From assembly GCF_001412615.1 (NCBI RefSeq), contig NZ_CP013011.1:1500001-1532000 (forward strand): a stretch of 32,000 nucleotides of DNA, read 5' to 3'. Under the pieces are notes generated by a model. It did no database searches, was not told the DNA's origin, and was given only the letters and a program-made list of their open reading frames with translations. Origin of the DNA: Pyrodictium delaneyi. Its GTDB lineage: Archaea; Thermoproteota; Thermoprotei_A; Sulfolobales; Pyrodictiaceae. The translations under genes and the position numbers were made by a program. This document shows, in pieces, positions 1,439-27,737 of the stretch (its first letter is position 1; each line of letters begins with the position of its first letter).

Positions 1439-3898
1439 ATGCATCGCGTGCTCCTAGCTGTAGTCTTTATCCTCCTCTTGCCTAGTTACGCTGCACCCGC
1501 TCTCGCCCATGACAGTGCTGTAGTAGTTGAGGCTATCGTCGGCGAGGACGGCTGGGCGTTCATACATGCCCGGCTGCCGCCAGGAGAGTACCAGATAGTG
1601 GCTGTCGAGGGCTGGAAGCCTAGGCCCGTCAACCCGAAGCCACTACTCCTCAGCTTTACCCCGGATCCGGGGTTCTGGGAGAAGCTTAGAGGATTAGCAG
1701 TCGCTGCAACGTCTACAGTCTATGAGCCCAGAGTAGAACTCCTCGGCACGCCTAACGGTATAGAACTCTACGCGTGGGCTCCAGGCGAGCCTGGCTCCCG
1801 GGTTAGGGTGGTTCTTGAGAGGTTGGAAGCCGGAACGACCACTAGCGAGAAGAAAGGCATGCTCATAATCGTTCCTAATAACACGCTGGTGCTGAGCTAT
1901 GCAGAGAAGATAACTGAGCTGCATCACAGCCAAGGTCTAGACGTGGAGATAGTTACTACGGACGAGATCAGGAGGAGCTACAAGCCCGCAGATGAGCCAG
2001 AAGGGCTCTGTAAGCCTGGCAAGACCGGGCCCGAGTACGACGTTGACCTAGCCCGCCGCATCGTCTCCATGCTCCGCGAGGCCTACAGAGAGGGTGTACG
2101 ATACGTCCTCATAATAGGTGGTGCTAAGGACGTGCCACCGTTCTACTACTGTAGTCCAATCCTCTACGAGCTGGTAAACCCTGAAGAAGCTGCTGTTCCA
2201 ACAGACTACTTCTACGCCGACCCCGACTATGATGGACTCGTGGAATTAGCCGTAGGCCGTATACCCTTCAGTGACCCGGTAAAGCTCAGCACCTACGTCT
2301 CGGCATTAGAGAGCTGGATGAAGGGCGGGACCTGGCAGGAGAAAGCACTACTCGCCGGTGGAGCACCCTTCGCCACCAGCCTGCTAGTAGGCGAGGACGC
2401 TGTCATTAAGGCTATCATGAATATTGCTAGTCTAGATCTAGAGGTTGACACGCTACTTCTAACCATGGGCAACTACGCGGGAACACGCTTTACAAGCTAC
2501 ATAGGCGATTACGGGCTATACTACCTGGTGACGCACGGCGCTGGCAACGCGCTTCTAGACTACGTGCCGGGCGGGCTCTGGAACTACGACTTTGAGGAGA
2601 AGCTCCGTAGCATCGAGGTGCCGTACACTACACAGCCTGGAGTTTACCTCAGCCCTGCCTGCCGCGCCGGGTTCTGGGACTATGACCTAGTAGACCCCCC
2701 GTTCAAGCCCCCTAGCGTAGCAGTGTCGCTGCTGGAGCGAGGCGCTGCTGTAGCCTATCTCGGCTTCTCCCGCATAGCGATAGAGGTTATTGACGGGGTT
2801 ACTGCTGTCGATGGCAATGTTTACGCAAGCCTCGCTGCCGCTGACGCGGTGCTGATACTCTTCACGAAGAGTCTAGGCTCCGCGGAGACACTCGGCGATG
2901 CGTGGCTCTCAGCCCTCAACGCCTACTCGGTCATGCCCGCGAGTAGCTACCGCGCCTACCTGGTGAGGGGTCAGGAGGACATAGGCGAGCTAGTACTCCG
3001 CGAGGCTATATTCCTCGGCGACCCAGCAGCACCAAACCCATGGCGTAGGGTTACAATCACATCTACCGTAGAGCCGCCAGAGCTTGTACCCCCGCCAGGC
3101 AGCATAGATATAGGTGCATCTGTACTAGCTATGCCGCTAGCCCGTTACGCATCTGGTACTCTGCCCGCGTTTAACCCTGGTAATGCAACAACCATAACCA
3201 TAGACTTCGATGGCGTCTGCCCAGAGAAGGTCTATGCATGGTCGCTTTATCGAGTCTATGGCTACTATATGATAGGGCTTGAGCGTCTCTACGCTACTAT
3301 CGAGCAGAGCGGGGGCTGTACAGTCACGATAACACTGCCACAAGACTCGCCCGGCCTCATAAGGCTCCTAGCTCGCTGGGGCAATAACTACCTCACAACG
3401 TACTACATAATAGCTGCTGGAGCCTACCTCGATACAAGCACCGGGACGCTGGTAATAAGAGGACTTGATGTACTCGAAACCGTGGGTGACGAACCAATAC
3501 TGTTAACCGTCAACGGTGCAACAGCCTCCACTATACCTGGTGGTTCTACAAGCTACACCGTACCCTTACAAGCAATAGCACCATTGATGCCAGATAATAA
3601 TGCCATTGTATCGGTTACCCCTGTCTACCGGTTCGACAAAATATACGGTGGTAAATTCGTCGAAAACGAGCTGGAGAAGCTAGCTAAGCTCTTCACGGTC
3701 ACCGTACCCGCCGAGGATGCGGTAATTCTGCCCCCATTCTCTGTACAGTTCGCGGAGGGCAATACATCTTGCCCAACTCCAGCTGCCGGGAAAAAGCCGC
3801 TAACTGTTGGTGCCGACATCGTGGCATTCTTCGCTGCTATTGGACTGGTAGCAGCCCTAGCCATGGCTAAACGCCGCAGCTCTCCAGCTAGTCTCTAG
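1439..3898 (+). CDS. Secreted, C-terminally membrane-anchored protein with a peptidase C25 (gingipain)-like domain
   Basis: 819 aa. N-terminal signal peptide MHRVLLAVVFILLLPSYAAPALA. C25-like blocks: YVLIIGGAKDVPPFYY, PTDYFYADPDYDG..AVGRIPF, candidate catalytic His in YYLVTHGAGN and candidate Cys in YLSPACRAGFWD. C-terminal TM helix VAFFAAIGLVAALAMA followed by KRRSS. Confidence 0.55.
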   Translation: MHRVLLAVVFILLLPSYAAPALAHDSAVVVEAIVGEDGWAFIHARLPPGEYQIVAVEGWKPRPVNPKPLLLSFTPDPGFWEKLRGLAVAATSTVYEPRVELLGTPNGIELYAWAPGEPGSRVRVVLERLEAGTTTSEKKGMLIIVPNNTLVLSYAEKITELHHSQGLDVEIVTTDEIRRSYKPADEPEGLCKPGKTGPEYDVDLARRIVSMLREAYREGVRYVLIIGGAKDVPPFYYCSPILYELVNPEEAAVPTDYFYADPDYDGLVELAVGRIPFSDPVKLSTYVSALESWMKGGTWQEKALLAGGAPFATSLLVGEDAVIKAIMNIASLDLEVDTLLLTMGNYAGTRFTSYIGDYGLYYLVTHGAGNALLDYVPGGLWNYDFEEKLRSIEVPYTTQPGVYLSPACRAGFWDYDLVDPPFKPPSVAVSLLERGAAVAYLGFSRIAIEVIDGVTAVDGNVYASLAAADAVLILFTKSLGSAETLGDAWLSALNAYSVMPASSYRAYLVRGQEDIGELVLREAIFLGDPAAPNPWRRVTITSTVEPPELVPPPGSIDIGASVLAMPLARYASGTLPAFNPGNATTITIDFDGVCPEKVYAWSLYRVYGYYMIGLERLYATIEQSGGCTVTITLPQDSPGLIRLLARWGNNYLTTYYIIAAGAYLDTSTGTLVIRGLDVLETVGDEPILLTVNGATASTIPGGSTSYTVPLQAIAPLMPDNNAIVSVTPVYRFDKIYGGKFVENELEKLAKLFTVTVPAEDAVILPPFSVQFAEGNTSCPTPAAGKKPLTVGADIVAFFAAIGLVAALAMAKRRSSPASL

Positions 3899-5742: not shown

Positions 5743-5749
5743 TTTAAAT
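5743..5749 (+). promoter_or_regulatory. TATA-like box (TTTAAAT) upstream of ribK
   Basis: TTTAAAT lies 56-62 nt upstream of the ATG at 5805 and overlaps the ORF-track ATG at 5748. This argues that 5748 is not the true start. A GGGAGAG SD-like element lies at 5793-5799. Confidence 0.35.
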
Positions 5750-5804
5750 GTTGTCCTTAGTCGTGTCGGCATCCGGGATAACGAAACACGCCGGGAGAGC
5801 TGAC

Positions 5805-6245
5805 ATGCAAGCGAGGATTATCAAGGGCCGACGTGTAAAGGGTTTTGGCGTCGGTGCTTATTACATATCGCATCCCTATTATAGTGGATGGTTCAGTAAG
5901 TTACTGAGTTGCAAACCATTTCCAGGAACCCTAAATATTGAGACGGACATTGATTGGCGTGAACTAGCCGGGCTATGCGAGCCAATAGTAGTGCCAGAGA
6001 CGGAATGGGAAGGCAAACATCTCGGCGCAGTATATGTCTGGAGAGCCAAAGTGGAGACAAACCAGGGAACCGCAGATGTACTCGTTATACGCCCATTGTT
6101 AAGCAGTCACGAGCCTTCAGTGCTTGAGATCGTGGCATGTGAGAGACTATCCACACTACTCAAAGGAGATACAATCCGTGTAGAAGTCCTTTGCAGAGGC
6201 GGAGACAATGAAAGTAGGCCTAATACTAGCAGGGGGCGAGGGTAG
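5805..6245 (+). CDS. ribK: CTP-dependent riboflavin kinase (archaeal RibK, MJ0056 family)
   Basis: The ORF track gives 5748..6245. I prefer the ATG at 5805 ([17 protein letters not shown]...), which gives 146 aa, close to known archaeal RibK length as I recall it. The diagnostic block is PFPGTLNIE, plus GAYYIS..Y and a C-terminal beta-barrel-like region. Confidence 0.75.
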
Positions 6246-6993
6246 ACGTTTTGGCGGAGACAAGCTCATCGCTTTAACTGACGGTAGGCCCGCAATTGCA
6301 CGGATTAGTGATGTTCTTCAAGCAGCTGGCGCAGAGCTTGTATATGTTGCAACACGGGAAGAGCAACGCTGTAAGATATACACGGATATCGCTAATTTAG
6401 ATGGCTGCATATATGACCCAGACTGGCTTGCATGTGGAGGACCAGCAGCTGCCTTAACGGGATTAGAGTCCCTTCAAGCCCGTGTACTACTAGTAACTCC
6501 AGGAGATATGCCATGGATAACACCAGACGTATTGATTAGACTAGAGGCCTTTATGGAACAGACCAAGGCCGAGGCTGCACTACCAATGCATAGTGGCGGT
6601 TTTCTTGAGACACTAGTAGCCACAATACGTTGGAGCCTTGTGGAAAGATTACCGAAGATACTTGTTCAGCTTTGCAATTTACGAGGAGAACTGAGAGCTA
6701 GTGATCCTTATCGAGCTTCAACGAGACTTACACTTGTTGGCTCGGGACTCCTTACATGGAATCCGATAGTATTTTCCCACATTAATACCCGCGAGCGCCT
6801 ACAAACCCGTGAACCAAAGAATAACCTTGGACCGAAAGACATACTGATTACGGAGCCCCATTTAGATCCATTTGCGCCAAGAGACCAACTATGTCTTAGG
6901 CTAGCACGAGAAAGAAACGAATATCACAAGCTTGGGATAATTCACTTGGAAAGACAGGCATGGAAGGACTTTCTTATGCTTTGTAAACAGTGA
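6208..6993 (+). CDS. mobA: Molybdenum cofactor guanylyltransferase (MobA) with a C-terminal extension
   Basis: N-terminal [20 protein letters not shown] matches the LAGGxxxRxGxDK nucleotide-binding signature. PGDMPWI matches the MobA DxP-type block. It overlaps ribK by 38 nt. At 261 aa it is about 60 aa longer than typical MobA. Confidence 0.75.
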
Positions 6994-7238: not shown

Positions 7239-10200
7239 ATGCCGCCACAACGTAAAAGCAAGCCCGATTTGAATAGACGCTCGTTCCTCAAAGCAACAAC
7301 ATTGATGACTGCACTGGCTATGCTGCCAAGCAGTGCTAGAAGAGCACTTGGCTATACTCCGCCAAAGGAGTATATGCTCGGCGAGATAGGCAATAAGAGT
7401 CTCTATGAGACAGTTGAAATCCGCGGTGTATGCACATACTGTAGCGTTGGTTGCGGAATCATATTCTACAAGCAAGCCAATAAGGTAGTGTACCAGGAAG
7501 GCGATCCAGACAATCCTCTTAACGAGGGCAAGCTCTGTATAAAAGGCAAAGCTTCCATACAGCTGTTCGGCGCCCACAATCCTCTACGTGCCCGTACACC
7601 CCTTATCCGCGTAAATCCCAAGCCCAAGCCCGAGGAGATACTAGAAGCCAGGGACTCCAACGAGCTCATGAAGGTCCTGGAGAAGTATAAGCCAGTCTGG
7701 AAGCCTGTAACCTGGGAAGAGGCCTTCGAATACGTAATGAAGAAGATGAGAGAGATTCTCGAAGCCAATGCTGATGCTGTTAGAGTATACCACCCCTATG
7801 ACGGTAAGATATGTGATAGCAGGAAGGGCTGCTACTTCCGCTTCGGCAACAAGTACCCTGTAATGATAATAGCCGGCGCAAAGATGCTCAACGAGGAAGC
7901 ATACCTCATAAGGAAGATATCAATGCTTATAGGATGCAACAACATAGACCATGATGCGCGGCGTTGTCACTCCACTACAGTGGCCGGCCTAGCTGGCACA
8001 GTTGGCTTCGGCGCACAGACCCAGAGCTTCCCCGACACCCAGTATATCAGCGTCTACCTCATCCTGGGCGGGAACCCTGCCGAGGCCCACCCCGTCTCAA
8101 TGAGGCACGTCATGAAGGGCATCAACCGCGGCACACTAACACTAGTAGTGGTGGACCCGAAGTATGGGCGCACTGCATCCAAGGCCCATATATTCGCATT
8201 CCACCGCCCCGGCACAGACATACCCATAATGTACTACATCCTACACTACGCGTTCTTCGAGCGCAACCCGCCGGTAGACCGGCTCGACACCTTCCGCGAG
8301 TACGCTAAGAGGTTCAACATAGACATAGCTGAGATCGAGGAGATAAAGGACATAGCCAAGAGGTTCACTGCCGAAGAGGTCTCGAGGATAACTGGTGTAC
8401 CGGTCGAGAAGCTTCGCGAGATAGCCCGGCTCTTCGTCGAGAACAGCGGAGTAACCACCGGGTTCAAGAGGTTCGCCTCGATAGAGTGGGCTATGGGGCT
8501 CACTCAGCACCACGTAGGCACACAGAATACCCGCCTCGCCGCCCTGGTTCAGCTAGTCCTGGGCAATCTAGGCTTCCCAGGAGGCGGCCTCAACCCCTAC
8601 CGTGGTCACAGTAATGTGCAAGGCACAACTGACCTATGTATACTAAGCCACATATTCCCAGGCTACATCAAGATCCCGACCAATAGTAAGCAGATCCGCG
8701 CCTACCAGGAGTGGAAGCTGAAGGGCTTCCCCGACGCCTTCAACTGGCGCCCCAGCATGAACACTTGTAAGGCGCTCGGCCTGAAGTGCAGCGATTGCGA
8801 CGATAACGGCGACAACTGCAAGCTAACAGTAAACAGTGGGGCGCTACTCTGGGCATGGTGGTTCATGAACTGGCGCCGCTACGAGCTAGCCATGGGTATC
8901 TTCGTCGGCACGGATCCCGAGGATAAGCCGTGGGACGAGAACAGCGTCGTGATAAGCGATCTACCATTCAACAAGGGCTACACCGAGAACAACTGGTGGA
9001 TGGGCGTATTACTGCCCGACGACCCGAGGACAAAGAAGATCGGCGGAAAGATAGAGGCCATGTGGCTGTTCGGCGAGAACATAGCCATTAGCGACGCTGA
9101 CTCTAAGATAACCATGGCGGCTCTCGCAGCGCTAAAACTCCTAGTAGTGTCCGACATATTCATAACAGAGACCGCATGGTTCGCCGATGTATTCCTCCCG
9201 GCCGCGTTCCAGTACGAGAAGGAGGGCAGCATAACTAACAGCAACCGCTGGATACAGTGGCAGCACCGCGTGGTAGAGCCACCCGGCGATGCCAGGGCAG
9301 ACCTATGGGTGATGTACAAGTTCTGGGACTACATGAGGCGTAGTGGCCTAGTAAAGCTGCCGAGCGAGGAGTACGGTAAGAAGATCGAGCGTGTAGTAGT
9401 GAAGCACCCCGAGGCCGATACGCTGGTCGAGCTCTACCGGAGGAAGATAGAGCCCTACATGAACTATGGCAGCGGTAGATTCCCGTGGACCGACTACCGG
9501 GAAGTAGACCCGGTGCTCGTCTACAAGGAGATCGATGCTGCTGTAGACCTCTACTATGGCCAGTACGACTGGGCCCACGACAAGATACTAGCCATGAGGA
9601 GGATATCCGCGCCACGTGTACCCGGCCAGCCTGACGGTCTGCTCGACAGTGGCACCCTCGAGCACCCTGGCGGGAAGGCCCCGCTGAGGCTCTTCAAGGA
9701 CTGGGGCTGGAGCTGGCCCAGGAACGTCAGGATACTCTACAACCTGTACACATTGGAGAAGACATTCGGCCGCAAGGACAGCTTCACCTTTGAGCCAGGC
9801 AAATGGACCGTAGGCCCAGAGCTAGACGGCAAGACCGTGGAGATCACTGGCGAGGCCGGCGAAATGATAGATGCTAAAACAAAGATGCCTAGACCGGCCT
9901 TCATACCGGGCCACAACTTCGTGATAGGCAAGTACTATAAGCGCGCCTGGACATGCCTCACAGAGAAGTGCAGCCAGAAGACCACGGCCGACATATTCAC
10001 TGGCGCTGCCTACGCCGAAGACATGATACGCTACGGCAAGACCGTCGGCAAGATAGTGTTCTGGAAGCCTGGCGGCGGCTACGAGATAAAGACTGTCGAG
10101 GAGCTCGACATAAGGTGTCCGATGTGCGAGAGCTTCTACTATGACCCCGAGCTGATACTAGACTACGGCAAGGCCGTGTTCTATAAGCCGTACTTCAAGG

Positions 10201-11033
10201 GCACCAAGACCATTAACGGAAAGACGATAGTCTACAAGGACTGGAAGGAATGGCGCCCGGTGCACGACAAGTTCGTAAAAGAATTCACAGCCTGCATTGG
10301 AGGCAATCCTGAGAACTACAAGAAGTGTGTCAAGGAGTTCCTAGACAAGTATGGCGAGTGGTATGCTATAACTGGACCTGACGGCAAGGTATGGGCCTAT
10401 AGTATCGACTACCCGTTCCACTTCGAGCCAGTTGAAAGCCCGAGCATAGAGATGGCAACCAAGTACCCAGCACTAGCCTGGAGGAGGATAGAGAACCTGT
10501 TCTACATAGAGCCACCAGAGCAGATGCCGGAACTATACAAGGCCGTGGTAGCGACCTATGAAGAGCTGAAGAAGTACGCGCCTAGCGATGCAGAAGTGGT
10601 AGTGGTTACCGAGAACCGTCTTGAGGAGCACTTCCACACCGGTATCATGACGCGCAACGTGCCGTACCTTGCCGAGACGCTGCCAGAGCCCTTCGCAGAG
10701 ATCCCAGTCGAGCTAGCCGAAAAGCTGGGTATAAAGAGTGGCGACATAGTAGAGCTGGGCAACAATAGGAACAAGATCTACGTGCGAGCACTGGTAACAC
10801 ACCGCATGCCTAAGCTGAGGATAGGCAACAAGGAGGTCTACGTGATCAACGTGCCGTGGAGCTGGGGTTGGAGCGGCGCCCACAACAGCTTCGACGTAGC
10901 CAACACGATATCAATACTAGTAATGGACATAGTTACTACGATGCAGGAGACGAAGGCGTTCCTAGCATGGGTGAAGAAGGCCAGCCCAGACAAGTACACT
11001 TACCAGGCTAAACCCCGCATACAAGTGTTCTAA
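7239..11033 (+). CDS. fdnG: Formate dehydrogenase-N-type molybdopterin catalytic subunit (Cys-type, Tat-exported), unusually long at 1264 aa
   Basis: Twin-arginine motif NRRSFLK (7272-7292). [4Fe-4S] motif CTYCSVGCG...CIKGK. Active-site block IDHDARRCHSTTVAGL aligns with E. coli FdnG VDNQARVUHGPTVASL, with Cys243 (TGT, 7965-7967) in place of Sec, followed by His244. Further matching blocks: GGNPAEAHP, VVDPKYGRTAS, GLTQHHVGTQN, NPYRGHSNVQGTTD (catalytic Arg), EKEGSITNSNRWIQW and ENRLEEHFHTG. Confidence 0.9.
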   Translation: MPPQRKSKPDLNRRSFLKATTLMTALAMLPSSARRALGYTPPKEYMLGEIGNKSLYETVEIRGVCTYCSVGCGIIFYKQANKVVYQEGDPDNPLNEGKLCIKGKASIQLFGAHNPLRARTPLIRVNPKPKPEEILEARDSNELMKVLEKYKPVWKPVTWEEAFEYVMKKMREILEANADAVRVYHPYDGKICDSRKGCYFRFGNKYPVMIIAGAKMLNEEAYLIRKISMLIGCNNIDHDARRCHSTTVAGLAGTVGFGAQTQSFPDTQYISVYLILGGNPAEAHPVSMRHVMKGINRGTLTLVVVDPKYGRTASKAHIFAFHRPGTDIPIMYYILHYAFFERNPPVDRLDTFREYAKRFNIDIAEIEEIKDIAKRFTAEEVSRITGVPVEKLREIARLFVENSGVTTGFKRFASIEWAMGLTQHHVGTQNTRLAALVQLVLGNLGFPGGGLNPYRGHSNVQGTTDLCILSHIFPGYIKIPTNSKQIRAYQEWKLKGFPDAFNWRPSMNTCKALGLKCSDCDDNGDNCKLTVNSGALLWAWWFMNWRRYELAMGIFVGTDPEDKPWDENSVVISDLPFNKGYTENNWWMGVLLPDDPRTKKIGGKIEAMWLFGENIAISDADSKITMAALAALKLLVVSDIFITETAWFADVFLPAAFQYEKEGSITNSNRWIQWQHRVVEPPGDARADLWVMYKFWDYMRRSGLVKLPSEEYGKKIERVVVKHPEADTLVELYRRKIEPYMNYGSGRFPWTDYREVDPVLVYKEIDAAVDLYYGQYDWAHDKILAMRRISAPRVPGQPDGLLDSGTLEHPGGKAPLRLFKDWGWSWPRNVRILYNLYTLEKTFGRKDSFTFEPGKWTVGPELDGKTVEITGEAGEMIDAKTKMPRPAFIPGHNFVIGKYYKRAWTCLTEKCSQKTTADIFTGAAYAEDMIRYGKTVGKIVFWKPGGGYEIKTVEELDIRCPMCESFYYDPELILDYGKAVFYKPYFKGTKTINGKTIVYKDWKEWRPVHDKFVKEFTACIGGNPENYKKCVKEFLDKYGEWYAITGPDGKVWAYSIDYPFHFEPVESPSIEMATKYPALAWRRIENLFYIEPPEQMPELYKAVVATYEELKKYAPSDAEVVVVTENRLEEHFHTGIMTRNVPYLAETLPEPFAEIPVELAEKLGIKSGDIVELGNNRNKIYVRALVTHRMPKLRIGNKEVYVINVPWSWGWSGAHNSFDVANTISILVMDIVTTMQETKAFLAWVKKASPDKYTYQAKPRIQVF

Positions 11034-11068: not shown

Positions 11069-11863
11069 ATGACCGAGTACGGGATAGTATTCAACCTCGA
11101 TACATGTATAGGTTGCAGGGCATGCCAGACAGCGTGTAAGGTCTGGAACGGGCTGAAAGCTGAAGAGACTAGCTTCAACCCTGAGGGCTACACCAACCCA
11201 GTAGACCTATCGCCGAACACCTGGATGATAATGGAGTTCCTAGAGGGGTTGATGGGCGATTCACCATTCTGGCTCTTCAAGAAGCGCCAGTGCATGCACT
11301 GTAGCGAGGCACCTTGCGCCAAGGCGTGCCCGGTCAACGCCATAGAGGTGCATCCCGAGGGCGCCGTGGTAATCCGTCCCGACAAGTGCATAGGTTGCCG
11401 CTACTGTATCGAGGCCTGCCCCTACGATGTGCCACGCTACGACCCGATATCGAACAAGGTATACAAGTGTACATTCTGTATCGACCGTGTACAGAATGGC
11501 CTCGCACCCGCATGTGTCGAGGCCTGCCCAACTGATGCACTAGAGTTCGGCCCCTGGGAGGAACTGCTCCAGAAGTACCGCGCCGCCGGCTACGAGGTGT
11601 ACGGAGACAACGTTAACGATTACGTCGGACGCACTCACTACCTCTACGTGACGAGGAAGTTCCGGAACTTTGGAGCCGAGGAGGGCAAGAAGTGGTACGA
11701 GGCTATTGGCTTCCCAGAAAACCCGACAGGAGCACTACCACTCATTGAAGCCGGACGCAACGTTGGTGTAGGTCTTGCAGCGCTAGCAGCTGTAGGTGCA
11801 GTAGCTCACGCCATCTACTGGAGGGCTAAGAGGATCGAGGAGAGGAACAAGACCGAGAAATGA
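11069..11863 (+). CDS. fdnH: Formate dehydrogenase iron-sulfur (beta) subunit, four [4Fe-4S] motifs and a C-terminal TM anchor
   Basis: Cys motifs CIGCRACQTAC, CMHCSEAPCAKACP, CIGCRYCIEACP and CTFCIDR...ACVEACP. C-terminal helix VGVGLAALAAVGAVAHAIYW. SD GGTGATC lies at 11058-11064. Confidence 0.88.
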   Translation: MTEYGIVFNLDTCIGCRACQTACKVWNGLKAEETSFNPEGYTNPVDLSPNTWMIMEFLEGLMGDSPFWLFKKRQCMHCSEAPCAKACPVNAIEVHPEGAVVIRPDKCIGCRYCIEACPYDVPRYDPISNKVYKCTFCIDRVQNGLAPACVEACPTDALEFGPWEELLQKYRAAGYEVYGDNVNDYVGRTHYLYVTRKFRNFGAEEGKKWYEAIGFPENPTGALPLIEAGRNVGVGLAALAAVGAVAHAIYWRAKRIEERNKTEK

Positions 11864-11900: not shown

Positions 11901-12629
11901 ATGGGTAAGGAGGTTAAACTCTTCAGTGAACTAGAGATATGGGCACATAAACACGCTATACACTTCGCAGCCGCCCTAATACTAACGGGGCTGATAGTCT
12001 CCGCCAACAGCCTGCCAGACCCCCTAGGAGGGTTCTTCGAGTGGCTAGCATATACACTAGGTACACCAGCATCCTACTTTGCTGAAGCCCTCGGGCTTTC
12101 ACCGCTCGAGCAGAGCTATAGCGCCTATAGCCTCGGTGTACAAGTAGCTAGGATAGTCCACCGGCTCGCAGGAATAGGAATGGCGTTCATAGGCCTAGTG
12201 TGGCTCCTAGGCGAGCTACCACGGGCTAGGAAGTGGCAGATATGGCCCGAAGGCGGTCTAGGAGCTGCCGTCAAGAATCTGATAGACTACTATGTAGGAA
12301 AGAAGGAACCACGGTTCGGCAAGTATAACCTCGGCCAGAAACTGTGGATAATAGGTGTAGTCGTTGGCTTTACGCTACTCTTCATAACAGGCATAATAAT
12401 GTGGTTCCGCGACAGTTTCAGCCAAAGCGTGGTAAACACTGCTCATACGCTACACACATGGCTAGCATGGATAAGTATTGCTGGACTAATAATCCACATA
12501 TATCTCGCCATAGGAATACCAGAGCATAGGCCAATGCTGAGAGCCATGTTCCGCACCGGTACTGCACCAGAAGAGTTTGTGAAGAAGCATCACCCATTAT
12601 ACTATGAGAAAATAAGAAGCGAAGACTAA
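11901..12629 (+). CDS. fdnI: Formate dehydrogenase cytochrome b (gamma) membrane subunit
   Basis: 242 aa with 4-5 predicted TM helices. Conserved-looking His are at helix ends (HKHAIHF, RIVHRL, HTLHTW, IIHIYL), as in the FdnI/cytochrome b561 family. SD GGGGGTG lies at 11887-11893. The gene position after fdnH also fits. Confidence 0.8.
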   Translation: MGKEVKLFSELEIWAHKHAIHFAAALILTGLIVSANSLPDPLGGFFEWLAYTLGTPASYFAEALGLSPLEQSYSAYSLGVQVARIVHRLAGIGMAFIGLVWLLGELPRARKWQIWPEGGLGAAVKNLIDYYVGKKEPRFGKYNLGQKLWIIGVVVGFTLLFITGIIMWFRDSFSQSVVNTAHTLHTWLAWISIAGLIIHIYLAIGIPEHRPMLRAMFRTGTAPEEFVKKHHPLYYEKIRSED

Positions 12630-12696: not shown

Positions 12697-12741
12697 CCTT
12701 ATGTCGAAGTTTACATTAAAGTTGAGAGTAATATAGATAAG

Positions 12742-13575
12742 ATGGAGATGGTACTAGACATGACTGCAGGGGAAGTTACACCAGGCGCAGATGCCACTAA
12801 AGAATGTAGTCTAGCCACAACGCTTGTAGCAGGACTACGCATAGCAGCAGACTACAAGTACATAATAGAGGTTGACGACAAATACGTCGGCTCTATACAC
12901 ACGAGCCCGAACTACTTGGCTGACGCCATAGCAGGGCTAGCTCTACGCGATGGATTGGCTACCCTAGGCGATCATGTAGAGCTTGTCGAGGTCAAGCCGT
13001 TAGGCGATATGAGCTTCCTAGTTAGGGCTCGACTTGTCAGGGCTATGGCTACGAGCCTTCCCGATGAGAGACCGCTCGACTGGAACGTCATAGAAAGAGT
13101 CTATCGTGACCTGATAAGGTCTGTGCCTAAGGCTCAATGCCCCTTCGCCGTACACACTGTGGCCGTATACGGGATACCTCAAGACGGTGAACCGCGGAGG
13201 TTGATACTCGTCAGTGATGTCAGCCGCCATAGTGCAGTGCTGAAGGCTGCAGGTATGCTCTCGAGACTTGCTAGCTCTGGGAAACTACGTGGTCTTGCAT
13301 TGCTCGCTGTCTCCACAGGGAGGATATCCGGCGACGCTGTAGAGGCTCTGGCAAGGGCTGGAGTCCGGGTCATAGTTGCCAATCATCATCCGTTGTTGAG
13401 TGGCCTTGCAGCCGCTCTTCGCCATGGTGTTGCACTGGTGCTGCGTAGGCCCGATAGCCGAGGCCTCGCAGTCTACACGTCGCCGGAACTGGTAGTTAAT
13501 GCGCCCCTAGTGTTGTCGGTTAAGGAGGCAGGAGAGCCACCTTCTTATGCTGCCTCTATACTGCCGGTGTGCTGA
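12742..13575 (+). CDS. fdhD: FdhD-like formate dehydrogenase accessory protein (divergent; lacks the CxxC sulfur-relay loop)
   Basis: 277 aa. Blocks align by eye with E. coli FdhD: HTSPNYLADAIAGLALRDGL with ASPKDLEYFALGFSLSEGI; CPFAVHTVAVY with GCTHAAAWM; DVSRHSAVLKAAG with DVGRHVALDKLLG; STGRISGDAVEALARAGVRVIVA with [22 protein letters not shown]. Confidence 0.7.
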   Translation: MEMVLDMTAGEVTPGADATKECSLATTLVAGLRIAADYKYIIEVDDKYVGSIHTSPNYLADAIAGLALRDGLATLGDHVELVEVKPLGDMSFLVRARLVRAMATSLPDERPLDWNVIERVYRDLIRSVPKAQCPFAVHTVAVYGIPQDGEPRRLILVSDVSRHSAVLKAAGMLSRLASSGKLRGLALLAVSTGRISGDAVEALARAGVRVIVANHHPLLSGLAAALRHGVALVLRRPDSRGLAVYTSPELVVNAPLVLSVKEAGEPPSYAASILPVC

Positions 13576-13727: not shown

Positions 13728-14666
13728 GTGAGGTTTCGTGTTATGGGTAGTGGGAAGCACGTACTTCTGCGCGACAGATTTCCCGAGATAAGAAGTTGGC
13801 TCGGGAAATTCTCTGAAGAGGACAAGAGGAACGAATCTTCTTACCGCATACTGGAGGCCCTATACGAGGTCCAGGCACGTATAGAGGAGGAGGCTCTGCG
13901 CCGCCTGGAGGAGGCTGGACTAATTGAGGAAGTAGCTAAGGCAGCACGGAAGATAGCATTTCAACGCGTACCTCTCATCATAATTCTTGGTGGTCTCCCT
14001 AAACCGCTTATGGATGAAGAATTTCTGCGCCGCTCGATGCTCGATATAATAGACGCTGTAGCAAGGGAGGGCTACAGTCTCAAAGGTGCTACAGCTTCCC
14101 TCCGCGATCCAGTGGAGAAGGCAGCATTAAGTATCTCTCAGCTCGTTGAAGAGCTATTGGAAGGTCGAGAAGATAGTATCCATGCATGGGCAGGCGCTGT
14201 CTCAGCTGACCGGGACCGTGTTCGGGCGCTGGCCCTTTGGTTAATCCAGCCCTTGCTTAGTGCACTACGCGTAGCTGCTAGCAACGCATTAGGTTGGGTT
14301 CGGGAATACTGGCAGCAAGGTCTTTGTCCAGTCTGTGGTTCTGTCACACGCGTCGGGTACATGAAGGGGGAAGGGAGGAAGCAGTTCCTCCGTTGCCAGG
14401 TCTGCGGAATGGAGTGGGTCTTTCCCCGCGCTCGATGTCCCTATTGTGGCACGGACAAGCCAGGCGATGTGGTATTCTATCAACCTCTGGAGTCTAGGCA
14501 ATGGTTACGGCTTTACTATTGCCGCCATTGCGGAGCCTACTGGAAGATAGTAGATGAGGAGGATGAAGCCGCCGCCAAGAGCGGGCTACCACCAAGAGAA
14601 CTTTACGACGTCTATACTTTTATCCTCGACTCTGTAGCCGAGGCAATGACCTCCAAGAGGCAGTAG
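13728..14666 (+). CDS. fdhE: FdhE formate dehydrogenase maturation protein (four CxxC rubredoxin-like knuckles)
   Basis: C-terminal region GLCPVCGS...FLRCQVCGMEW...RARCPYCG...YYCRHCGAYWK matches the FdhE pattern CPVCGS..RYL.C.LC..EW...R.KC..C......C..C..Y.K. A GTG is at 13728 and an ATG at 13743. Confidence 0.85.
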   Translation: MRFRVMGSGKHVLLRDRFPEIRSWLGKFSEEDKRNESSYRILEALYEVQARIEEEALRRLEEAGLIEEVAKAARKIAFQRVPLIIILGGLPKPLMDEEFLRRSMLDIIDAVAREGYSLKGATASLRDPVEKAALSISQLVEELLEGREDSIHAWAGAVSADRDRVRALALWLIQPLLSALRVAASNALGWVREYWQQGLCPVCGSVTRVGYMKGEGRKQFLRCQVCGMEWVFPRARCPYCGTDKPGDVVFYQPLESRQWLRLYYCRHCGAYWKIVDEEDEAAAKSGLPPRELYDVYTFILDSVAEAMTSKRQ

Positions 14667-14804
14667 GCCCTAGGGTGTACAAGTTGTCGGAAGATGGCGG
14701 CTTCGTAGAGGAAATGCCTGAAGACTTCTATGCTGCTGAAGAGCTTGAATTAGGCCGCTTGTCGAAATGCAAGAGTCTGGGGAAAAAACGGAAGAAAAAG
14801 ACCG

Positions 14805-15437
14805 TTGACAAGGTGCTCGGAGATAACGAGCAGAGGCAGTAAGAGCGATAGCAGGAGGAGAGTCTCGTTGCCGCTCCCAGGACTCTTGAATGCTGTAGCA
14901 TATGCGCCTAGACACCGTGACGAACTCTTGGGGATGTTAGAAGAGACTACGAATAAGATTGTAGAAGTAATGAAGACCACTATGCCACAGCATGCTATCA
15001 ACCTCTACACAATGTTAGCATCAGCCAAGGCATTGCCCGTAGCAGTAAAGGGAGGCCCGCCGCCGCTAAACCCGCTACAGTATGCCGACTTTGCTGCCGA
15101 TATCATAGCCCGGTTAGAGTCTACTGGTTTTTACGAGGAAGCTAGGCCCCTTCGACGCGCCCTCATGTCGGGAAAGCTACCCGTCTACGATCTTGCCCGT
15201 GGCTACTTGCTCGGAGACTTAGACTTTATAGTCTCGGTGTCAAGGGAGCTTGGTGCCGCCGAGTGGATTGTCGCATTCCTCGCCGCAGCAGTAGCTGCAG
15301 GCGCTGCCAGGGCTATACGGGCCGTGCTAGAATCTGATAGGAGCCTGCCGGCTCTAGGCCAGGATGCTACGTGCCCTGTGTGTGGTAGATCCTTGGAGAA
15401 TGGACGTTGTAGTTTCTGTCTCTACGCACAGAGGTAG
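14805..15437 (+). CDS. Hypothetical protein with a C-terminal CPVCG...CSFC zinc-ribbon; possible truncated FdhE-like paralogue
   Basis: The ORF-track start is TTG. A more plausible ATG at 14934 (MLEETTNKIV...) gives 167 aa. The body is helical and Ala-rich, ending in ATCPVCGRSLENGRCSFC. It follows fdhE on the same strand. Confidence 0.45.
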   Translation: MTRCSEITSRGSKSDSRRRVSLPLPGLLNAVAYAPRHRDELLGMLEETTNKIVEVMKTTMPQHAINLYTMLASAKALPVAVKGGPPPLNPLQYADFAADIIARLESTGFYEEARPLRRALMSGKLPVYDLARGYLLGDLDFIVSVSRELGAAEWIVAFLAAAVAAGAARAIRAVLESDRSLPALGQDATCPVCGRSLENGRCSFCLYAQR

Positions 15438-19886: not shown

Positions 19887-20285
19887 TCAGCGTTTTTCTG
19901 CTGCAAGTGGATCACCTATTAGGCTGGAACGGTTTGCTGTAGCCGGCGGCACGATGTTACTCGTTTTGTAGGCGTGTCGTGGACAGATGTCTACGCAGTG
20001 GTAACAGAACATACAGAGATCGTAATGCACTACCGGATATCGACGTGGCCTCTTAGCATTTTCCTGGCCTGGTAGTAGCTTCATCTCTATCGCTCCCGGC
20101 GGGCACTCTATAGCGCATAGACTACAGCCTATACACTTCTCCACATCAACCACGTGGAGGCCGCGATACCCACCACTAGGAGTTGGGCCGGTTTTTAGGC
20201 CGTATTCTATTGTGGCAGGCCGCCTAGCCAAGTTTGATACGAGTTCACTTAGCATGATAAGTATACGCGGCTTCACAACTTCCAC
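19887..20285 (-). CDS. nuoI: 2x[4Fe-4S] ferredoxin subunit of the membrane-bound hydrogenase/complex-I-like enzyme (NuoI/MbhN-like)
   Basis: CIGCSLCAIECPPGAI and CMFCYHCVDICPRHA, separated by a spacer as in NuoI. It is the last gene of the operon. It has a GTG start. Confidence 0.85.
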   Translation of the reverse strand: MEVVKPRILIMLSELVSNLARRPATIEYGLKTGPTPSGGYRGLHVVDVEKCIGCSLCAIECPPGAIEMKLLPGQENAKRPRRYPVVHYDLCMFCYHCVDICPRHAYKTSNIVPPATANRSSLIGDPLAAEKR

Positions 20286-20290
20286 CCCTT

Positions 20291-21469
20291 CTATTGATCT
20301 GCCCGCCGACGAGCTAGTTGACGTAAGTTCTCTAGACGTTCGCGCCCAGTACGTTCATCAACTACTATAACGCGCTCCATGCATGATATGCAGGGATCAA
20401 GACTTGCTAGTATGACCGGTATATCCGCCAATGTGGCACCTTGGTAGGCTACGAGACTGTTCAGTATGTTGGGGATACTCGGCGTCCTTATCTTTACTCT
20501 ATAAGGCTTAGTGCCGCCCCGACTAACAACATGGTATAGGAGTTCACCACGTGGAGCCTCAACTCGTGATATTGCCTCACCCTCACGGAACCGGCGAGGC
20601 GGAGTCTTCAGACTGTTAATTGGACCGCTTGGCAGTTTTTCTAGCACTTGACGTATAATGTTTATAGACTCTAACGCCTCCTCGAACCGGACCAGCATAC
20701 GGGCGAGTGCATCGCCCTCACTACGTCTAATTACTTGGAAGTCTAGCTCCCCGTACCAAGCATAAGGATCATCGCGTCTGACATCGATATCTACGCCGGA
20801 GCCACGAGCTGTTGGCCCGACAAGTCCATGACTTACGGCCACACTGTACGGTATTACCCCTATGCCTTCAAGCCTACGGCGGAGCAACCTATCGCTTGTA
20901 TAGACTTCCATATAGTATTTTATCCGCTGTTCGAGAATATCCATGCTACGTCTTATCTTCTCTGCTACTTCAGGACTTAGGTCTCGACGAACGCCTCCTG
21001 GCCATACATAATCGGCTATGACTCGGTTTCCTGTGAGCAGCTCCTTTAGGTGCATTACCTTCTCGCGATCCCTCATTATCAGCATGAAGAGGCTCTCAAA
21101 TCCAGCTATCTCTGCAACCACGGCTGCTAGGAGCATGTGACTATGAAGCCTCTCGAGCTCCATTGCTAGGACTCGGAGAGCTTGAGCGCGAGGCGGCGGC
21201 TCGATACCATTTATCTCTTCGATGGCCTGGACATAGCAGTTAGAATGCATCATGTTGCATATACCGCAGACACGTGTCACTATATAGAGGGTTTTTAGGA
21301 ACGTATTGCTCTCAGCGAGCTTCTCTATCCCACGATGGTTATAGCCCGTAACTACCTCTACCCCGACTACGTCTTCACCGTCAACGCGTACACGGAGCAT
21401 AATGGGTTCGTGTAGTGCAGGATGCTGAGGCCCAATAGACACTTCTATTACCGGCATCCCCGTTATCAC
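20291..21469 (-). CDS. nuoD: Group-4 [NiFe]-hydrogenase large subunit (NuoD/MbhL/EchE-like) with an intact Ni-Fe ligand set
   Basis: L1 motif RVCGICNMMH (Cys68 at 21268-21266, Cys71 at 21259-21257). L2 motif DPCISCMER (Cys360 at 20392-20390, Cys363 at 20383-20381). A 26-aa tail VIVVDERTG... follows it. Also GPQHPALHEP and EAPRGEL blocks. GTGA overlap with the upstream gene. Confidence 0.9.
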   Translation of the reverse strand: MITGMPVIEVSIGPQHPALHEPIMLRVRVDGEDVVGVEVVTGYNHRGIEKLAESNTFLKTLYIVTRVCGICNMMHSNCYVQAIEEINGIEPPPRAQALRVLAMELERLHSHMLLAAVVAEIAGFESLFMLIMRDREKVMHLKELLTGNRVIADYVWPGGVRRDLSPEVAEKIRRSMDILEQRIKYYMEVYTSDRLLRRRLEGIGVIPYSVAVSHGLVGPTARGSGVDIDVRRDDPYAWYGELDFQVIRRSEGDALARMLVRFEEALESINIIRQVLEKLPSGPINSLKTPPRRFREGEAISRVEAPRGELLYHVVSRGGTKPYRVKIRTPSIPNILNSLVAYQGATLADIPVILASLDPCISCMERVIVVDERTGRERLENLRQLARRRADQ

Positions 21470-21906
21470 CTCTTATTCCAGTCCTTGCGTAACGGATATT
21501 CTCCAGCTACATCTGGCGGTGTGAAGAACCCTAAGCGGAGACTCTCATTACCCTCAAAGACTACGCCAAAGAGGTCGTAGACCTCTTGTTCATAGGGCAC
21601 TGCAGCGGGGAGTAACAGTGCCAAGCTTGGTGCTCTTGGCTGGCTTCGCGGTACCCGCGTCTTTAGCGTGAGTAGGCTCTTCTCCGGGATAATCCAGAAC
21701 ACATAGTCTAGCTCTATACTGTCCTCTTCAGGGAGATCTATGGCAGTTATCGCTGAGAGGTAAACTCCACGAGGGTAGGCCTCTAGCAAGCTTTTAACTA
21801 CTCCTGGCAGTTTCCAGGGATCATCAATACGTACTTCTAGACGTCGTTGCTTCTTTTCCACAATCTCTACTTTACTGTTCTTCAGCCACAGTTTTAGCTG
21901 CTTCAA
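21466..21906 (-). CDS. nuoC: NuoC/MbhK-like 30-kDa-type subunit
   Basis: 146 aa. YEQEVYDLFGVVFEGN and a R(K)DW-type C-terminus (YPLRKDW) are typical of NuoC/HycE-N/MbhK. It sits between the small and large subunits. Confidence 0.8.
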   Translation of the reverse strand: MKQLKLWLKNSKVEIVEKKQRRLEVRIDDPWKLPGVVKSLLEAYPRGVYLSAITAIDLPEEDSIELDYVFWIIPEKSLLTLKTRVPRSQPRAPSLALLLPAAVPYEQEVYDLFGVVFEGNESLRLGFFTPPDVAGEYPLRKDWNKR

Positions 21907-22405
21907 TTCTGTCAGCCTCCTCTCGGATACTCTTAAGGAGCCTAACTATGGCCTGGAGTATCGCGTCAGGACGCGGCGGGCATCCGGGAATATAGAGATC
22001 CACCGGCACGACGTTGTCGGCTCCACCAACTACACTGTAGCTATTGCGGAACACATTGCCAGAGATAGCACATGTACCAACTGCAACCACGTGTTTTGGG
22101 TCAGGTGTCTGTTCGTAGAGACGACGAAGTCTCTCAGCAGACTTCTTGGTTAGTGCACCCGTCACAATGATTATGTCGGCATGCCGAGGGTTCGGGGCCA
22201 GTCTTATACCGAAGCGTTCTGGATCGTAGAGGGGTGTTAGGGCCGCAAGAACCTCTATGTCACAGCCGTTGCATGCGCCGGTGTTAAAGTGGAGTAACCA
22301 GGGTGAACGTGAGAGCATTCTTAAGGTGAAAGAACTCCCACGATGCTTCACATTTTGCAAGGGGATATACGCCTCCGCCAAATAGAGTATATAGCTACGA
22401 AACAT
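21872..22405 (-). CDS. nuoB: Group-4 hydrogenase small subunit (NuoB/MbhJ-like), [4Fe-4S] N2-type cluster
   Basis: FNTGACNGCDIE (hydrogenase-type CxxC rather than the complex-I CC), GTCAISG and IPGCPPRP. The start is either 22405 (a TATA-like box lies ~32 nt upstream) or the internal ATG at 22318 (MLSRSPWLLHFNTG). Confidence 0.85.
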   Translation of the reverse strand: MFRSYILYLAEAYIPLQNVKHRGSSFTLRMLSRSPWLLHFNTGACNGCDIEVLAALTPLYDPERFGIRLAPNPRHADIIIVTGALTKKSAERLRRLYEQTPDPKHVVAVGTCAISGNVFRNSYSVVGGADNVVPVDLYIPGCPPRPDAILQAIVRLLKSIREEADRIEAAKTVAEEQ

Positions 22406-22436
22406 AGTTGATTAGGGTTACCCCGTAGAAGCCGGG

Positions 22437-22444
22437 ATAAAGAA
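22437..22444 (-). promoter_or_regulatory. TATA-like element (TTCTTTAT on the minus strand) in the 74-nt gap between the membrane-arm genes and the B-C-D-I module
   Basis: This is the only sizeable gap inside the 11-gene cluster. The T/A element sits about 32 nt upstream of the ATG at 22405, which fits a short-leader internal promoter. Confidence 0.25.
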
Positions 22445-22479
22445 CCCGCTGCCACAGCATACACGATTACACACCCCCG

Positions 22480-25168: not shown

Positions 25169-25170
25169 GG

Positions 25171-27018: not shown

Positions 27019-27021
27019 AGT

Positions 27022-27315
27022 CTACCCCCTTAGTTCGTCTAACTCGTCCACACTCCTAGCCCCATGGAGCCTTGAGGCGCGGAGGGCGAGCGCAGCTGCT
27101 AGGGCCATTATACCGGTGTCGAGAACTAGTATGAAGAGGTAGAAGCCTAGGCTACCACCCCACATGGCGAGGGATGCTGCTGCAGAAGCCGACACAAGTT
27201 CGAGGCCGACCAGTACGCGGAGAAAGTTAGAGTACCGAGTGAGCATGTAGAGGCCTGCAGAGGCTATAGCTGCTAGTGCTATTGAGTAGAATATGCTAGT
27301 CTCCACCGTCTTCAC
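27022..27315 (-). CDS. nuoK: NuoK-like small membrane subunit
   Basis: 97 aa with three TM helices. LVGLELVSASAAASLA resembles the NuoK L.slEim.na block with its membrane Glu. It sits between the J-like and L-like genes. Confidence 0.7.
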   Translation of the reverse strand: MKTVETSIFYSIALAAIASAGLYMLTRYSNFLRVLVGLELVSASAAASLAMWGGSLGFYLFILVLDTGIMALAAALALRASRLHGARSVDELDELRG

Positions 27316-27730
27316 CTCCCGCCACGACTCTTAACGCTAGCAACACTGAGGCTAGCGGAGCAGATGCCAGGGCTACTGCTAGAGGAGCCCATTCCTCTGC
27401 ACTGAGCTCCCGGGGCTGCTGTATATGAGAGCCAGCGATGGCTAGGGCTACGAGCACCACGAGTGCACCTATAGCCCCCATACCCGGGACGACGCCCCGC
27501 TTCGAGCCGCCCAACTCGGGAGCCAGGAAGCCTGCAGCTGCTAGAAACCCGGCTGCGAGTGAGAGCTGTACAACGGCTGCAACAACTTCGCCCATATCAA
27601 TAAACATTAACGCGAGGAGCACCAGAGCTGCGGTGGAGGAGAGTAACACTCGCTCGTCTCGCCCCGTGGTGGCAGCATAGAACGCCGCTACAGCCGCCGC
27701 AGCTGCTAGTACTCCTGCGAAGATACTCAC
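27296..27730 (-). CDS. nuoJ: NuoJ-like membrane subunit
   Basis: 144 aa and hydrophobic. GEVVAAVVQLSLAAGFL loosely matches the NuoJ F.a..Q..vY.GA block. The call rests largely on the canonical H-J-K-L gene order. Confidence 0.55.
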   Translation of the reverse strand: MSIFAGVLAAAAAVAAFYAATTGRDERVLLSSTAALVLLALMFIDMGEVVAAVVQLSLAAGFLAAAGFLAPELGGSKRGVVPGMGAIGALVVLVALAIAGSHIQQPRELSAEEWAPLAVALASAPLASVLLALRVVAGGEDGGD

Positions 27731-27737
27731 TCTGTTA

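Follow-up and report, generated by a model that had tools for sequence, protein, structure and literature searches.

A crenarchaeal FdhD-family protein with a deleted cysteine loop and clade-specific cysteines elsewhere in the chain

In a 32,000-nucleotide stretch of the Pyrodictium delaneyi genome (contig NZ_CP013011.1, positions 1,500,001 to 1,532,000; the whole stretch is called the window below and is numbered from its first nucleotide) the gene at 12742-13575 on the + strand, Pyrde_1514, encodes a 277-amino-acid protein of the FdhD family (ATG start, TGA stop; GenBank ALL01557.1), beside the genes of a formate dehydrogenase (FDH)-like enzyme. The FdhD protein of Escherichia coli is a sulfurtransferase, with IscS as the sulfur donor, and a chaperone of the molybdenum bis(pyranopterin guanine dinucleotide) cofactor (Mo-bisPGD) for the three enzymes FdnGHI, FdoGHI and FdhF. 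Pyrde_1514 lacks the cysteine loop of the E. coli protein and contains exactly three cysteines, C22 (in KECSLA), C133 (in AQCPFAV) and the C-terminal residue C277 (in PVC). The gene could be identified as Pyrde_1514 because the 1264-amino-acid protein encoded upstream (UniRef A0A0P0N5I7) is Pyrde_1511 in the proteomics tables of Kashyap and Holden. ALL01557.1 is 100% identical to OWJ54542.1 (entry name 'formate dehydrogenase chain D'); the two entries come from two strains, thus a sequencing artefact can be excluded. An alternative ATG at 12760 would give the 271-amino-acid RefSeq form (WP_180385479.1, 'FdhD'), which matches the 277-amino-acid product from Met7 on. The segment immediately 5' of the first ATG (12700-12741) is A/T-rich and contains the TATA-like elements TTTACATTAAA and TAATATAGATAA. 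Such a sequence would fit transcription of the fdhD-like gene from a promoter of its own into a leaderless mRNA, and it favours the 277-amino-acid start over the 271-amino-acid one.

Pyrde_1514 is a genuine but divergent member of the FdhD/NarQ family at the level of Pfam and of the fold. It matched the FdhD-NarQ profile PF02634 with 49.7 bits (E 5.3e-13), above the gathering threshold of 27.2, in an alignment that spanned profile positions 106-234 of 237 only, that is, the C-terminal domain. The scores against the NCBIfam equivalogs for FdhD stayed far below their cut-offs (TIGR00129, 46.9 vs. 140.9; NF001943, 22.1 vs. 269). When PDB sequences were searched with phmmer, the C-terminal half of the Desulfotalea protein 2PW9 was the only match, and 4PDE, the E. 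coli FdhD, was missed. Since a single-sequence search was evidently too weak, we adopted profile and fold comparison. Searched exhaustively with HMMER, 1.84 billion cluster representatives yielded just 70 relatives of Pyrde_1514 at E<=1e-3. The AlphaFold2 model, a monomer computed from an alignment of 71 sequences with canonical FdhDs among them, had a mean predicted local distance difference test (pLDDT) value of 91.5 and a predicted template-modelling (TM) score of 0.89. In a Foldseek search with this model 4PDE and 2PW9 were the best PDB matches (E ~1e-14, probability 1.00, TM 0.55-0.68 over ~236-245 columns), and proteins of the cytidine-deaminase fold ranked far below them. The top match was the guanosine diphosphate (GDP) complex of E. 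coli FdhD, 4PDE, with E 1.5e-14 and TM 0.61/0.68 over 236 columns. Profile-profile comparison with hhalign of the Pyrde_1514 clade, which is described below, with a set of canonical FdhDs gave a probability of 99.8% and an E value of 2.8e-29 over query residues 22-251; the canonical set included E. coli FdhD, checked to be 100% identical to 4PDE. Taken together, the model, Foldseek and hhalign place both FdhD domains in Pyrde_1514, the N-terminal one and the cytidine-deaminase-like C-terminal one. All 13 positions that are conserved in >=90% of 71 FdhD-like sequences are retained, and the residues of the pocket and of the family are all present (H138, D159, R162, H163, K168, G171, G193, R194, P217, A225 and L232), their counterparts in the E. 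coli pocket being His171, D188-x-x-R191-H192 and G-R219.

Two defining features of a sulfurtransferase of the E. coli type are missing from Pyrde_1514, a score at the equivalog level and the cysteine loop. Of the 72 sequences aligned with MAFFT, 41 have cysteine in the column of E. coli C121, and Pyrde_1514 and the entire clade to which it belongs have a gap there. The hhalign comparison places two E. coli insertions, residues 103-116 and 120-136 (~31 residues together), on the two sides of the query residues VRA, the second insertion containing G-C121-G-V-C124-G; the query stretch 'SFLVRARL / VRA / MATSLPDERPLDW' spans the site of both. In place of the long, disordered loop Pyrde_1514 has a short inter-domain linker (residues 100-113, 13039-13080, + strand; RAMATSLPDERPLD), 14 residues without a cysteine and with pLDDT values of 95-98, i.e. 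ordered in the AlphaFold2 model. No cysteine of the protein aligns with the loop: C133 corresponds to L166 of E. coli FdhD, C22 is N-terminal of strand 1, and C277 falls past the end of the E. coli protein. The canonical loop is thus deleted, with a short, ordered and cysteine-free linker in its place. An earlier note, made from the sequence of the window, had described an FdhD-like protein of 277 amino acids with these three cysteines and without the loop. The open reading frame (ORF), the profile and fold matches and the two alignments bear out this description, including the position of the segment concerned, and they also settle a doubt raised there, as none of the existing cysteines turned out to occupy the loop position.

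Pyrde_1514 belongs to a clade that was monophyletic in a neighbour-joining tree and that comprises 22 aligned sequences and a metagenomic sequence, L010 (labels beginning with L or P denote loci and proteins of our collection). Its named members come from P. delaneyi, P. occultum, Hyperthermus butylicus and one metagenome-assembled genome (MAG) of the Pyrodictiaceae. In an alignment of 21 members, which are 25-88% identical to the query, 18 positions are invariant, among them C22, K130, C133, P134, A136 and H138, and both cysteines are also present in P0089 and in L010. Cysteine was found at the positions of C22 or C133 in none of the 49 non-clade relatives in the tree. The terminal cysteine is likewise missing from relatives that do not belong to the clade. 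These relatives, including the nearest sister group, mostly keep a single loop cysteine ([ED][DE]C); their loop status was read from the alignment and not from the tree analysis. A clade-specific histidine at position 215 or 216 accompanies the clade cysteines in the 21-sequence alignment. The taxonomic range of this crenarchaeal clade is weakly defined by our searches. Two profile searches of a set of 5.8 billion proteins, both limited by the word index, gave 13 and 47 hits, and a profile search of genome contigs (10 sequences) gave one true clade member and two canonical FdhDs of Methanotrichaceae, and missed P. delaneyi itself.

The codon of C22 (12805-12807, + strand) lies in a clade-invariant column, and the residue is part of a short N-terminal helix (residues 18-24) just ahead of strand 1. 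C133 opens the motif C133-P-F-A-V-H138 (13138-13155, + strand), in which C133 and P134 are clade-invariant and H138, five residues after the cysteine, is the family-wide histidine equivalent to H171 of E. coli FdhD. In the AlphaFold2 model H138 is the first residue of the hairpin strand 138-145. This strand pairs with strand 152-159, which runs into D159/R162/H163, the motif with the highest conservation in the FdhD family. As judged from this predicted secondary structure, C133 should adjoin the functional pocket. Some non-clade FdhDs without a loop cysteine (P0045, P0070, P0075 and P0079) have an N-terminal cysteine ahead of strand 1, roughly at the site of C22, which may represent a wider N-terminal alternative. 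As a general compensation in loop-less canonical FdhDs, this arrangement is no more than a lead, as it was not seen in P0063, P0047, P0073 and P0076.

The third cysteine is at the very end of the protein. The C-terminal tail (residues 247-277, 13480-13572, + strand) ends in Pro-Val-Cys277 with the stop codon directly after, and residues ~258-277 are predicted with low confidence or as disordered (pLDDT 53-55 in the last two 10-residue blocks). Cysteine is the last residue in 16 of the 22 aligned clade members, and also in L010 and in the fragment P0036. Their tails are 27-43 residues long, variable in sequence, and usually end in P-[LVT]-C. Three members, P0015, P0017 and P0089, have no terminal cysteine but carry one close to the canonical site, within the short linker; the tail of P0015 and P0089 is only 8 residues long, and P0017, which stops before the tail, may be truncated. 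P0014 and P0023 have both the linker and the terminal cysteine. A third cysteine, either terminal or in the linker, is thus common (19/22 aligned members) but not universal. Cysteine makes up about 1% of protein residues, yet it is the last residue in lineages less than 50% identical to each other, so that its retention by chance is very unlikely, at least as an order-of-magnitude argument. The stop codons vary among the loci (TGA in Pyrde_1514, TAG elsewhere), which argues that the cysteine is truly terminal; read-through at the TGA after Cys277 with insertion of selenocysteine was ruled out, since the homologues stop at TAG.

The genes around Pyrde_1514 are all on the + strand and encode an enzyme of the FdnGHI type. 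Pyrde_1511 (7239-11033) is an FdnG-like catalytic subunit of 1264 amino acids, assigned by Pfam and NCBIfam, with a twin-arginine translocation (Tat) signal and a Mo/W-bisPGD site, and with cysteine in the active site. Pyrde_1512 (11069-11863; TIGR01582, E 1.3e-61; Fer4_11) is an FdnH-like Fe-S subunit with four clusters, and Pyrde_1513 (11901-12629; PF01292, TIGR01583) an FdnI-like cytochrome b membrane subunit. Downstream of Pyrde_1514 follows Pyrde_1515 (13728-14666), an FdhE-like accessory protein with CxxC knuckles (PF24859, 29.1 bits; TIGR01562, E 2.8e-11, under the cut-off), which was detected in the published proteome. Directly upstream of the catalytic gene lies a gene for a MobA-like nucleoside triphosphate transferase (6208-6993; PF12804, E 8.7e-26), which is likely to attach the guanine nucleotide to the molybdopterin cofactor; judged from its position beside the operon, the guanylylation of the cofactor seems to be encoded alongside the client. 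This gene is overlapped by one for a CTP-dependent riboflavin kinase (PF01982), and the pair (5748-6993) is immediately upstream of the FDH-like operon.

Behind Pyrde_1515 there is a small ORF (14675-14842, + strand), whose product, 55 amino acids from the GTG start, consists of an acidic segment, EEMPEDFYAAEELELGRLSKC, and a Lys-rich tail. Homologues were found in L004 (11889-12071), L005 (11848-12006) and L007 (9870-10004); across the four loci the products are 44-60 amino acids long, share the acidic segment EE[MI]PED[FY]YA.EEL.LG.LSKC with one conserved cysteine followed by the Lys-rich tail, and in 4/4 loci the ORF begins directly behind the FdhE-like gene or within its last codons. The small ORF had no Pfam match in precomputed tables, and judged from synteny it may encode a further accessory factor of the system. 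The next ORF (14805-15437, + strand; 210 amino acids, with Met44 at 14934 as the likelier start) has a zinc-ribbon-like end, CPVCG...CSFC. Neither Pfam nor NCBIfam places it in a family, and it is not shared by the syntenic loci. We considered it as a second FdhE and rejected this, as the BLASTP E value was 0.033 and the shared part was the CPVCG motif only.

The same arrangement, a Mo-bisPGD subunit of 1206-1348 amino acids, the Fe-S and cytochrome b subunits, the FdhE-like protein and the small ORF, was found in all but one of the clade loci with enough flanking sequence. The syntenic loci are the window, L004 of Hyperthermus butylicus, L005 and L006 of the Pyrodictiaceae MAG, the distant L007 and L008 (25% identical) and L010; the long catalytic form accompanies the loop-less FdhD in L004-L008 and L010. 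Only P0018 departs from this pattern; in L012 its gene lies elsewhere, outside an FDH operon. There (L012, 5553-8251) it adjoins a gene for a 283-amino-acid protein and a HypE gene whose product ends in '...VPRIC'; this 12.9-kb contig contains no Mo-enzyme gene.

The best PDB matches of Pyrde_1511 are all FDHs (D. gigas 1H0H, D. vulgaris FdhAB and E. coli FdnG). Its segment 'HDARRC243H244STTVAGLA' aligns with 'HQARI-Sec158-H159-SATVAALA' of 1H0H, in which Sec is selenocysteine, and 'YR455GHSNVQGTTD' aligns with the Arg407 motif of the same enzyme. As judged from these alignments, Pyrde_1511 keeps the full Cys-His-Arg triad of FDHs in its cysteine form and, by what is known of the family, should need a sulfido ligand. 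Pyrde_1511 is ~250 amino acids longer than FdnG, and its insertions contain extra cysteines (C510/C517/C520/C527, C906/C911 and C960/C963, the last two in CPMC), groups that may form additional metal sites. Published views on the nature of the complex conflict. With formate, strain Hulk was reported by Demey et al. to grow on Fe(III) citrate, nitrate or sulfur compounds (PMC5556600), and the one FDH cluster named in its genome is the Pyrde_1511-1513-type cluster with FdhD and FdhE (PMC5556600); Kashyap and Holden argue that the complex is not an FDH (PMC8105010; see below).

Pyrde_1514 is a maturation factor whose presumed client is the neighbouring FdnGHI-like complex Pyrde_1511-1513, a Cys-type enzyme exported by the Tat pathway, and the FdhE-like protein would be its partner in this task. 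For the loss of the loop the earlier note had offered two explanations, another route for the sulfur or a role of this FdhD as an insertion chaperone only. The finding on which they were based, an FdhD-like protein without the loop, has held, while both explanations had already been published (PMC10609526, PMC6239281). The remaining cysteines had been treated there as incidental. This does not agree with the invariance of C22 and C133, with the terminal cysteine in 16/22 members and with the linker cysteine in the three members that lack the terminal one. As the cysteines define the clade, a third option opens that had not been considered, namely that the relay cysteines were relocated. From the conservation pattern we estimate a probability of roughly 45% that the sulfur-relay cysteines moved in this way and that the C-terminal tail works as a swinging arm.

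The proposed mechanism would be the following. As in other members of the family, the guanine-dinucleotide cofactor would be held in the pocket of the C-terminal domain (H138, D159, R162, H163, G193 and R194), and Pyrde_1514 would pass it to the apo-enzyme before Tat export. With the disordered loop deleted, sulfur handling would have been taken over by the clade-specific cysteines, as their conservation suggests. The terminal cysteine (P-x-C-COOH) on its flexible tail of ~30 residues would be the swinging arm, which might pick up persulfide sulfur from a donor protein, or sulfur from sulfide or polysulfide, and hand it to the invariant C133, next to the pocket, and to C22; from these two residues it would reach the bound cofactor as its sulfido ligand. 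The literature search for cysteine desulfurases in Pyrodictium yielded nothing usable. In the three members without a terminal cysteine the linker cysteine would do the job of the arm. More tentatively, a persulfide-carrying cysteine moved from the loop to the end of the tail and feeding C22/C133 might represent a second, independently evolved architecture for the sulfuration of Mo/W-bisPGD. The donor in such an architecture would possibly be a protein other than IscS, or sulfide or polysulfide directly. In a variant of this idea the terminal thiolate would serve for a time as a ligand to the W or Mo of the chaperone-bound cofactor, in place of Cys243 of the enzyme.

Several observations weigh against the relocation of the relay. 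P0018, a complete ORF with a 15-residue tail, has neither a tail nor a linker cysteine, and the tails of P0013 (also a complete ORF) and P0010 are cysteine-free. In a monophyletic clade the cysteines count as having arisen together in a single evolutionary event, and only their retention argues for a function. No gene for a desulfurase, a rhodanese or a TusA-type sulfur donor was found in the 32-kb window. The Pyrde_1514 protein is absent from the published proteome tables (PMC8105010). According to Kashyap and Holden FDH activity was zero in extracts of nitrate-grown Su06 cells (PMC8105010), and Pyrde_1511-1513 were up ~50-fold to 3000-fold on ferrihydrite, from which the authors argue for a complex that is not an FDH and is linked to iron reduction (PMC8105010). 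The need for FdhD cysteines as such is disputed. Schwanhold et al. found the cysteines of R. capsulatus FdsC dispensable (PMC6239281), and E. coli FdhD with the C121A/C124A exchanges still gave active FdoGHI and active R. capsulatus FDH (PMC6239281), which makes the essential role of Cys121 and Cys124, a premise of the earlier note, a contested one. Finally, FDH can be sulfurated chemically in vitro by sulfide and a strong reductant without FdsC or FdhD (PMC12140954), a route that would suit an anaerobe of hydrothermal vents.

Some of these points also speak for an alternative in which Pyrde_1514 acts only in binding and inserting the cofactor, while an unrelated protein, or free sulfide (environmental or intracellular) or polysulfide, would supply the sulfur. 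The clade cysteines would then be structural, for example as a Zn or Fe-S site or as a thermostabilising staple with His215/216, and the clade-specific histidine that accompanies them is in keeping with this. The loop-less FdhD of M. maripaludis has already been read as such a chaperone (PMC10609526), the cysteines of FdsC and FdhD are dispensable for some FDHs (PMC6239281), sulfide and a reductant can replace the chaperone in the sulfuration of FDH (PMC12140954), and P0018, P0013 and P0010 do without any third cysteine. However, a structural role leaves unexplained why 16/22 members end in cysteine on a tail of variable sequence and predicted disorder, and why the three members without it have a cysteine in the linker. 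The AlphaFold2 model leaves the tail at low confidence and not docked on the core, and it puts C133 at what is predicted to be the functional pocket of the family. On balance we consider a chaperone without a part in sulfur transfer the main rival of the relocation, though a less likely reading than the latter.

It is also conceivable that the client is not an FDH but another respiratory oxidoreductase, iron reduction having been proposed, and that Pyrde_1514 is a chaperone specific to that system, with changed cysteines that reflect a different cofactor chemistry, possibly without a sulfido ligand. Besides the induction on ferrihydrite and the negative assay with nitrate-grown cells mentioned above (both PMC8105010), the assignment of the catalytic subunit to a clade of unknown function, 'MoOR 2' (PMC8105010), speaks for this, as do its low score against the FDH-alpha model TIGR01553 (428, cut-off 814) and its extra length of ~250 amino acids. 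Against it stand the PDB matches, which are FDHs without exception, and the exact alignment of the Cys-His pair and the Arg with SeCys158/His159/Arg407 of 1H0H, as well as the beta and gamma subunits and the FdhE of the FDH-N type, and the growth of strain Hulk on formate with a genome in which this very cluster is the FDH (PMC5556600). The negative assay does not outweigh the active-site evidence, because the complex is nearly absent in nitrate-grown cells. A client other than FDH thus seems improbable to us.

A second, canonical FdhD with the loop, encoded elsewhere in the genome, could do the sulfuration and leave Pyrde_1514 as a specialised or partly redundant paralogue. We think this even less probable, as no Pyrodictium protein was among the 47 hits of the sister-group profile in a search limited by the word index, the genome paper of strain Hulk lists one FdhD in one FDH cluster (PMC5556600), and in the loci examined, P0018 in L012 excepted, it is the loop-less form that lies in synteny with the enzyme; these data weakly support the absence of a second paralogue. 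That Pyrde_1514 is the decaying, non-functional remnant of an fdhD, as the missing hallmark loop, the weak scores against FdhD models and the absence from the proteome tables might suggest, is effectively refuted by conservation and has next to no likelihood, the ORF being intact and the same in two strains, with 18 invariant positions over 21 sequences of 25-88% identity, a confidently predicted fold and conserved synteny.

The window contains further genes of interest outside this system. A few kb downstream of the FDH-like operon and on the opposite strand lies a cluster resembling Complex I or a group-4 [NiFe]-hydrogenase (19887-28694, - strand), with a 4Fe-4S protein, a 49-kDa/NiFe large subunit, 30-kDa and 20-kDa subunits, three Mrp/NuoL-like antiporters and a NuoH-like protein. 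At the start of the window there are a gene for a homologue of the large subunit of RuBisCO, Pyrde_1506 (10-1347, + strand), and one for an 819-amino-acid peptidase of family C25, gingipain-like (1439-3898, + strand). A 536-amino-acid protein with DUF6513 and a PterinBD-DUF4346 pterin-binding domain is encoded at 29291-30901 (+ strand).

The way in which the FDH cofactor receives its essential sulfido ligand from FdhD is still debated. The clade can be regarded as a natural experiment on this question, in which the loop was deleted, two cysteines are invariant and a third is carried on a C-terminal arm or in a linker. If the clade cysteines turn out to be needed, they would show where on the FdhD scaffold sulfur is really handled; if not, the view of FdhD as mainly a cofactor chaperone would be strengthened. 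The question also bears on the production of active, thermostable, Cys-type (i.e. selenium-free) W/Mo FDHs for CO2 reduction, because co-expression of the correct maturation partner is often limiting. As for Pyrde_1511-1513 themselves, proposed in one study to be an iron-reduction complex and not an FDH, our alignments add sequence evidence that the catalytic triad of FDHs is kept in full.

It is instructive to compare Pyrde_1514 with better known proteins. With E. coli FdhD (4PDE) it shares the two-domain fold, His171 and the D-x-x-R-H and (T/S)-G-R motifs, and it is likewise encoded beside a Tat-dependent FdnGHI-type enzyme and fdhE. The E. coli-type protein is a homodimer with a tunnel that joins the face of the cysteine loop to the GDP-binding face (PMC10609526). 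At an identity of ~21%, Pyrde_1514 differs from it in the deletion of the ~31-residue disordered segment with C121-x-x-C124, and in having C22, the C133-P motif, His215/216 and a 30-residue tail that ends in cysteine. Next to the clade stands a sister group known from metagenome contigs, its closest outside relatives (E 1e-16 to 1e-10), 'clade B' (P0022, P0025-28, P0030, P0031, P0035 and others). Clade B has the same domain layout and conserved motifs as Pyrde_1514, but keeps one loop cysteine ([ED][DE]C, >=90%) and lacks C22, C133 and the terminal cysteine.

A parallel for the tail is found in an unrelated protein. HypE, which takes part in [NiFe]-hydrogenase maturation, has a flexible C-terminal tail with a conserved cysteine, 'PRIC', that carries a ligand precursor to the metal cofactor (PMC12130793). 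The tail of the Pyrde_1514 clade similarly ends in cysteine, mostly as P-[LVT]-C. The likeness is an analogy and not a homology, since fold and chemistry are unrelated, with thiocyanate in HypE and presumably a persulfide in Pyrde_1514; as a lead, the 'PRIC' end of HypE would provide a precedent for an arm that delivers a ligand by a terminal cysteine.

Departures from the CxxC paradigm are known among the FdhDs themselves. The 2023 review of Magalon notes FdhDs with one loop cysteine or none, and considers another sulfur route or a role of FdhD as insertion chaperone (PMC10609526); the passages on FdhDs departing from the loop CxxC in PMC6239281 contain the same speculation on sulfuration. 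Pyrde_1514 joins Desulfotalea 2PW9 (one loop cysteine), M. maripaludis FdhD (none) and FdsC (dispensable cysteines) in this respect. Unlike these three, it has lost the whole loop and has conserved replacement cysteines elsewhere in the chain, a combination of which we found no description in the literature searched. An FdhD without the loop cysteines is thus already known in kind, and what appears to be new is the combination, in this clade, of two invariant cysteines with a third at the C-terminus or in the linker.

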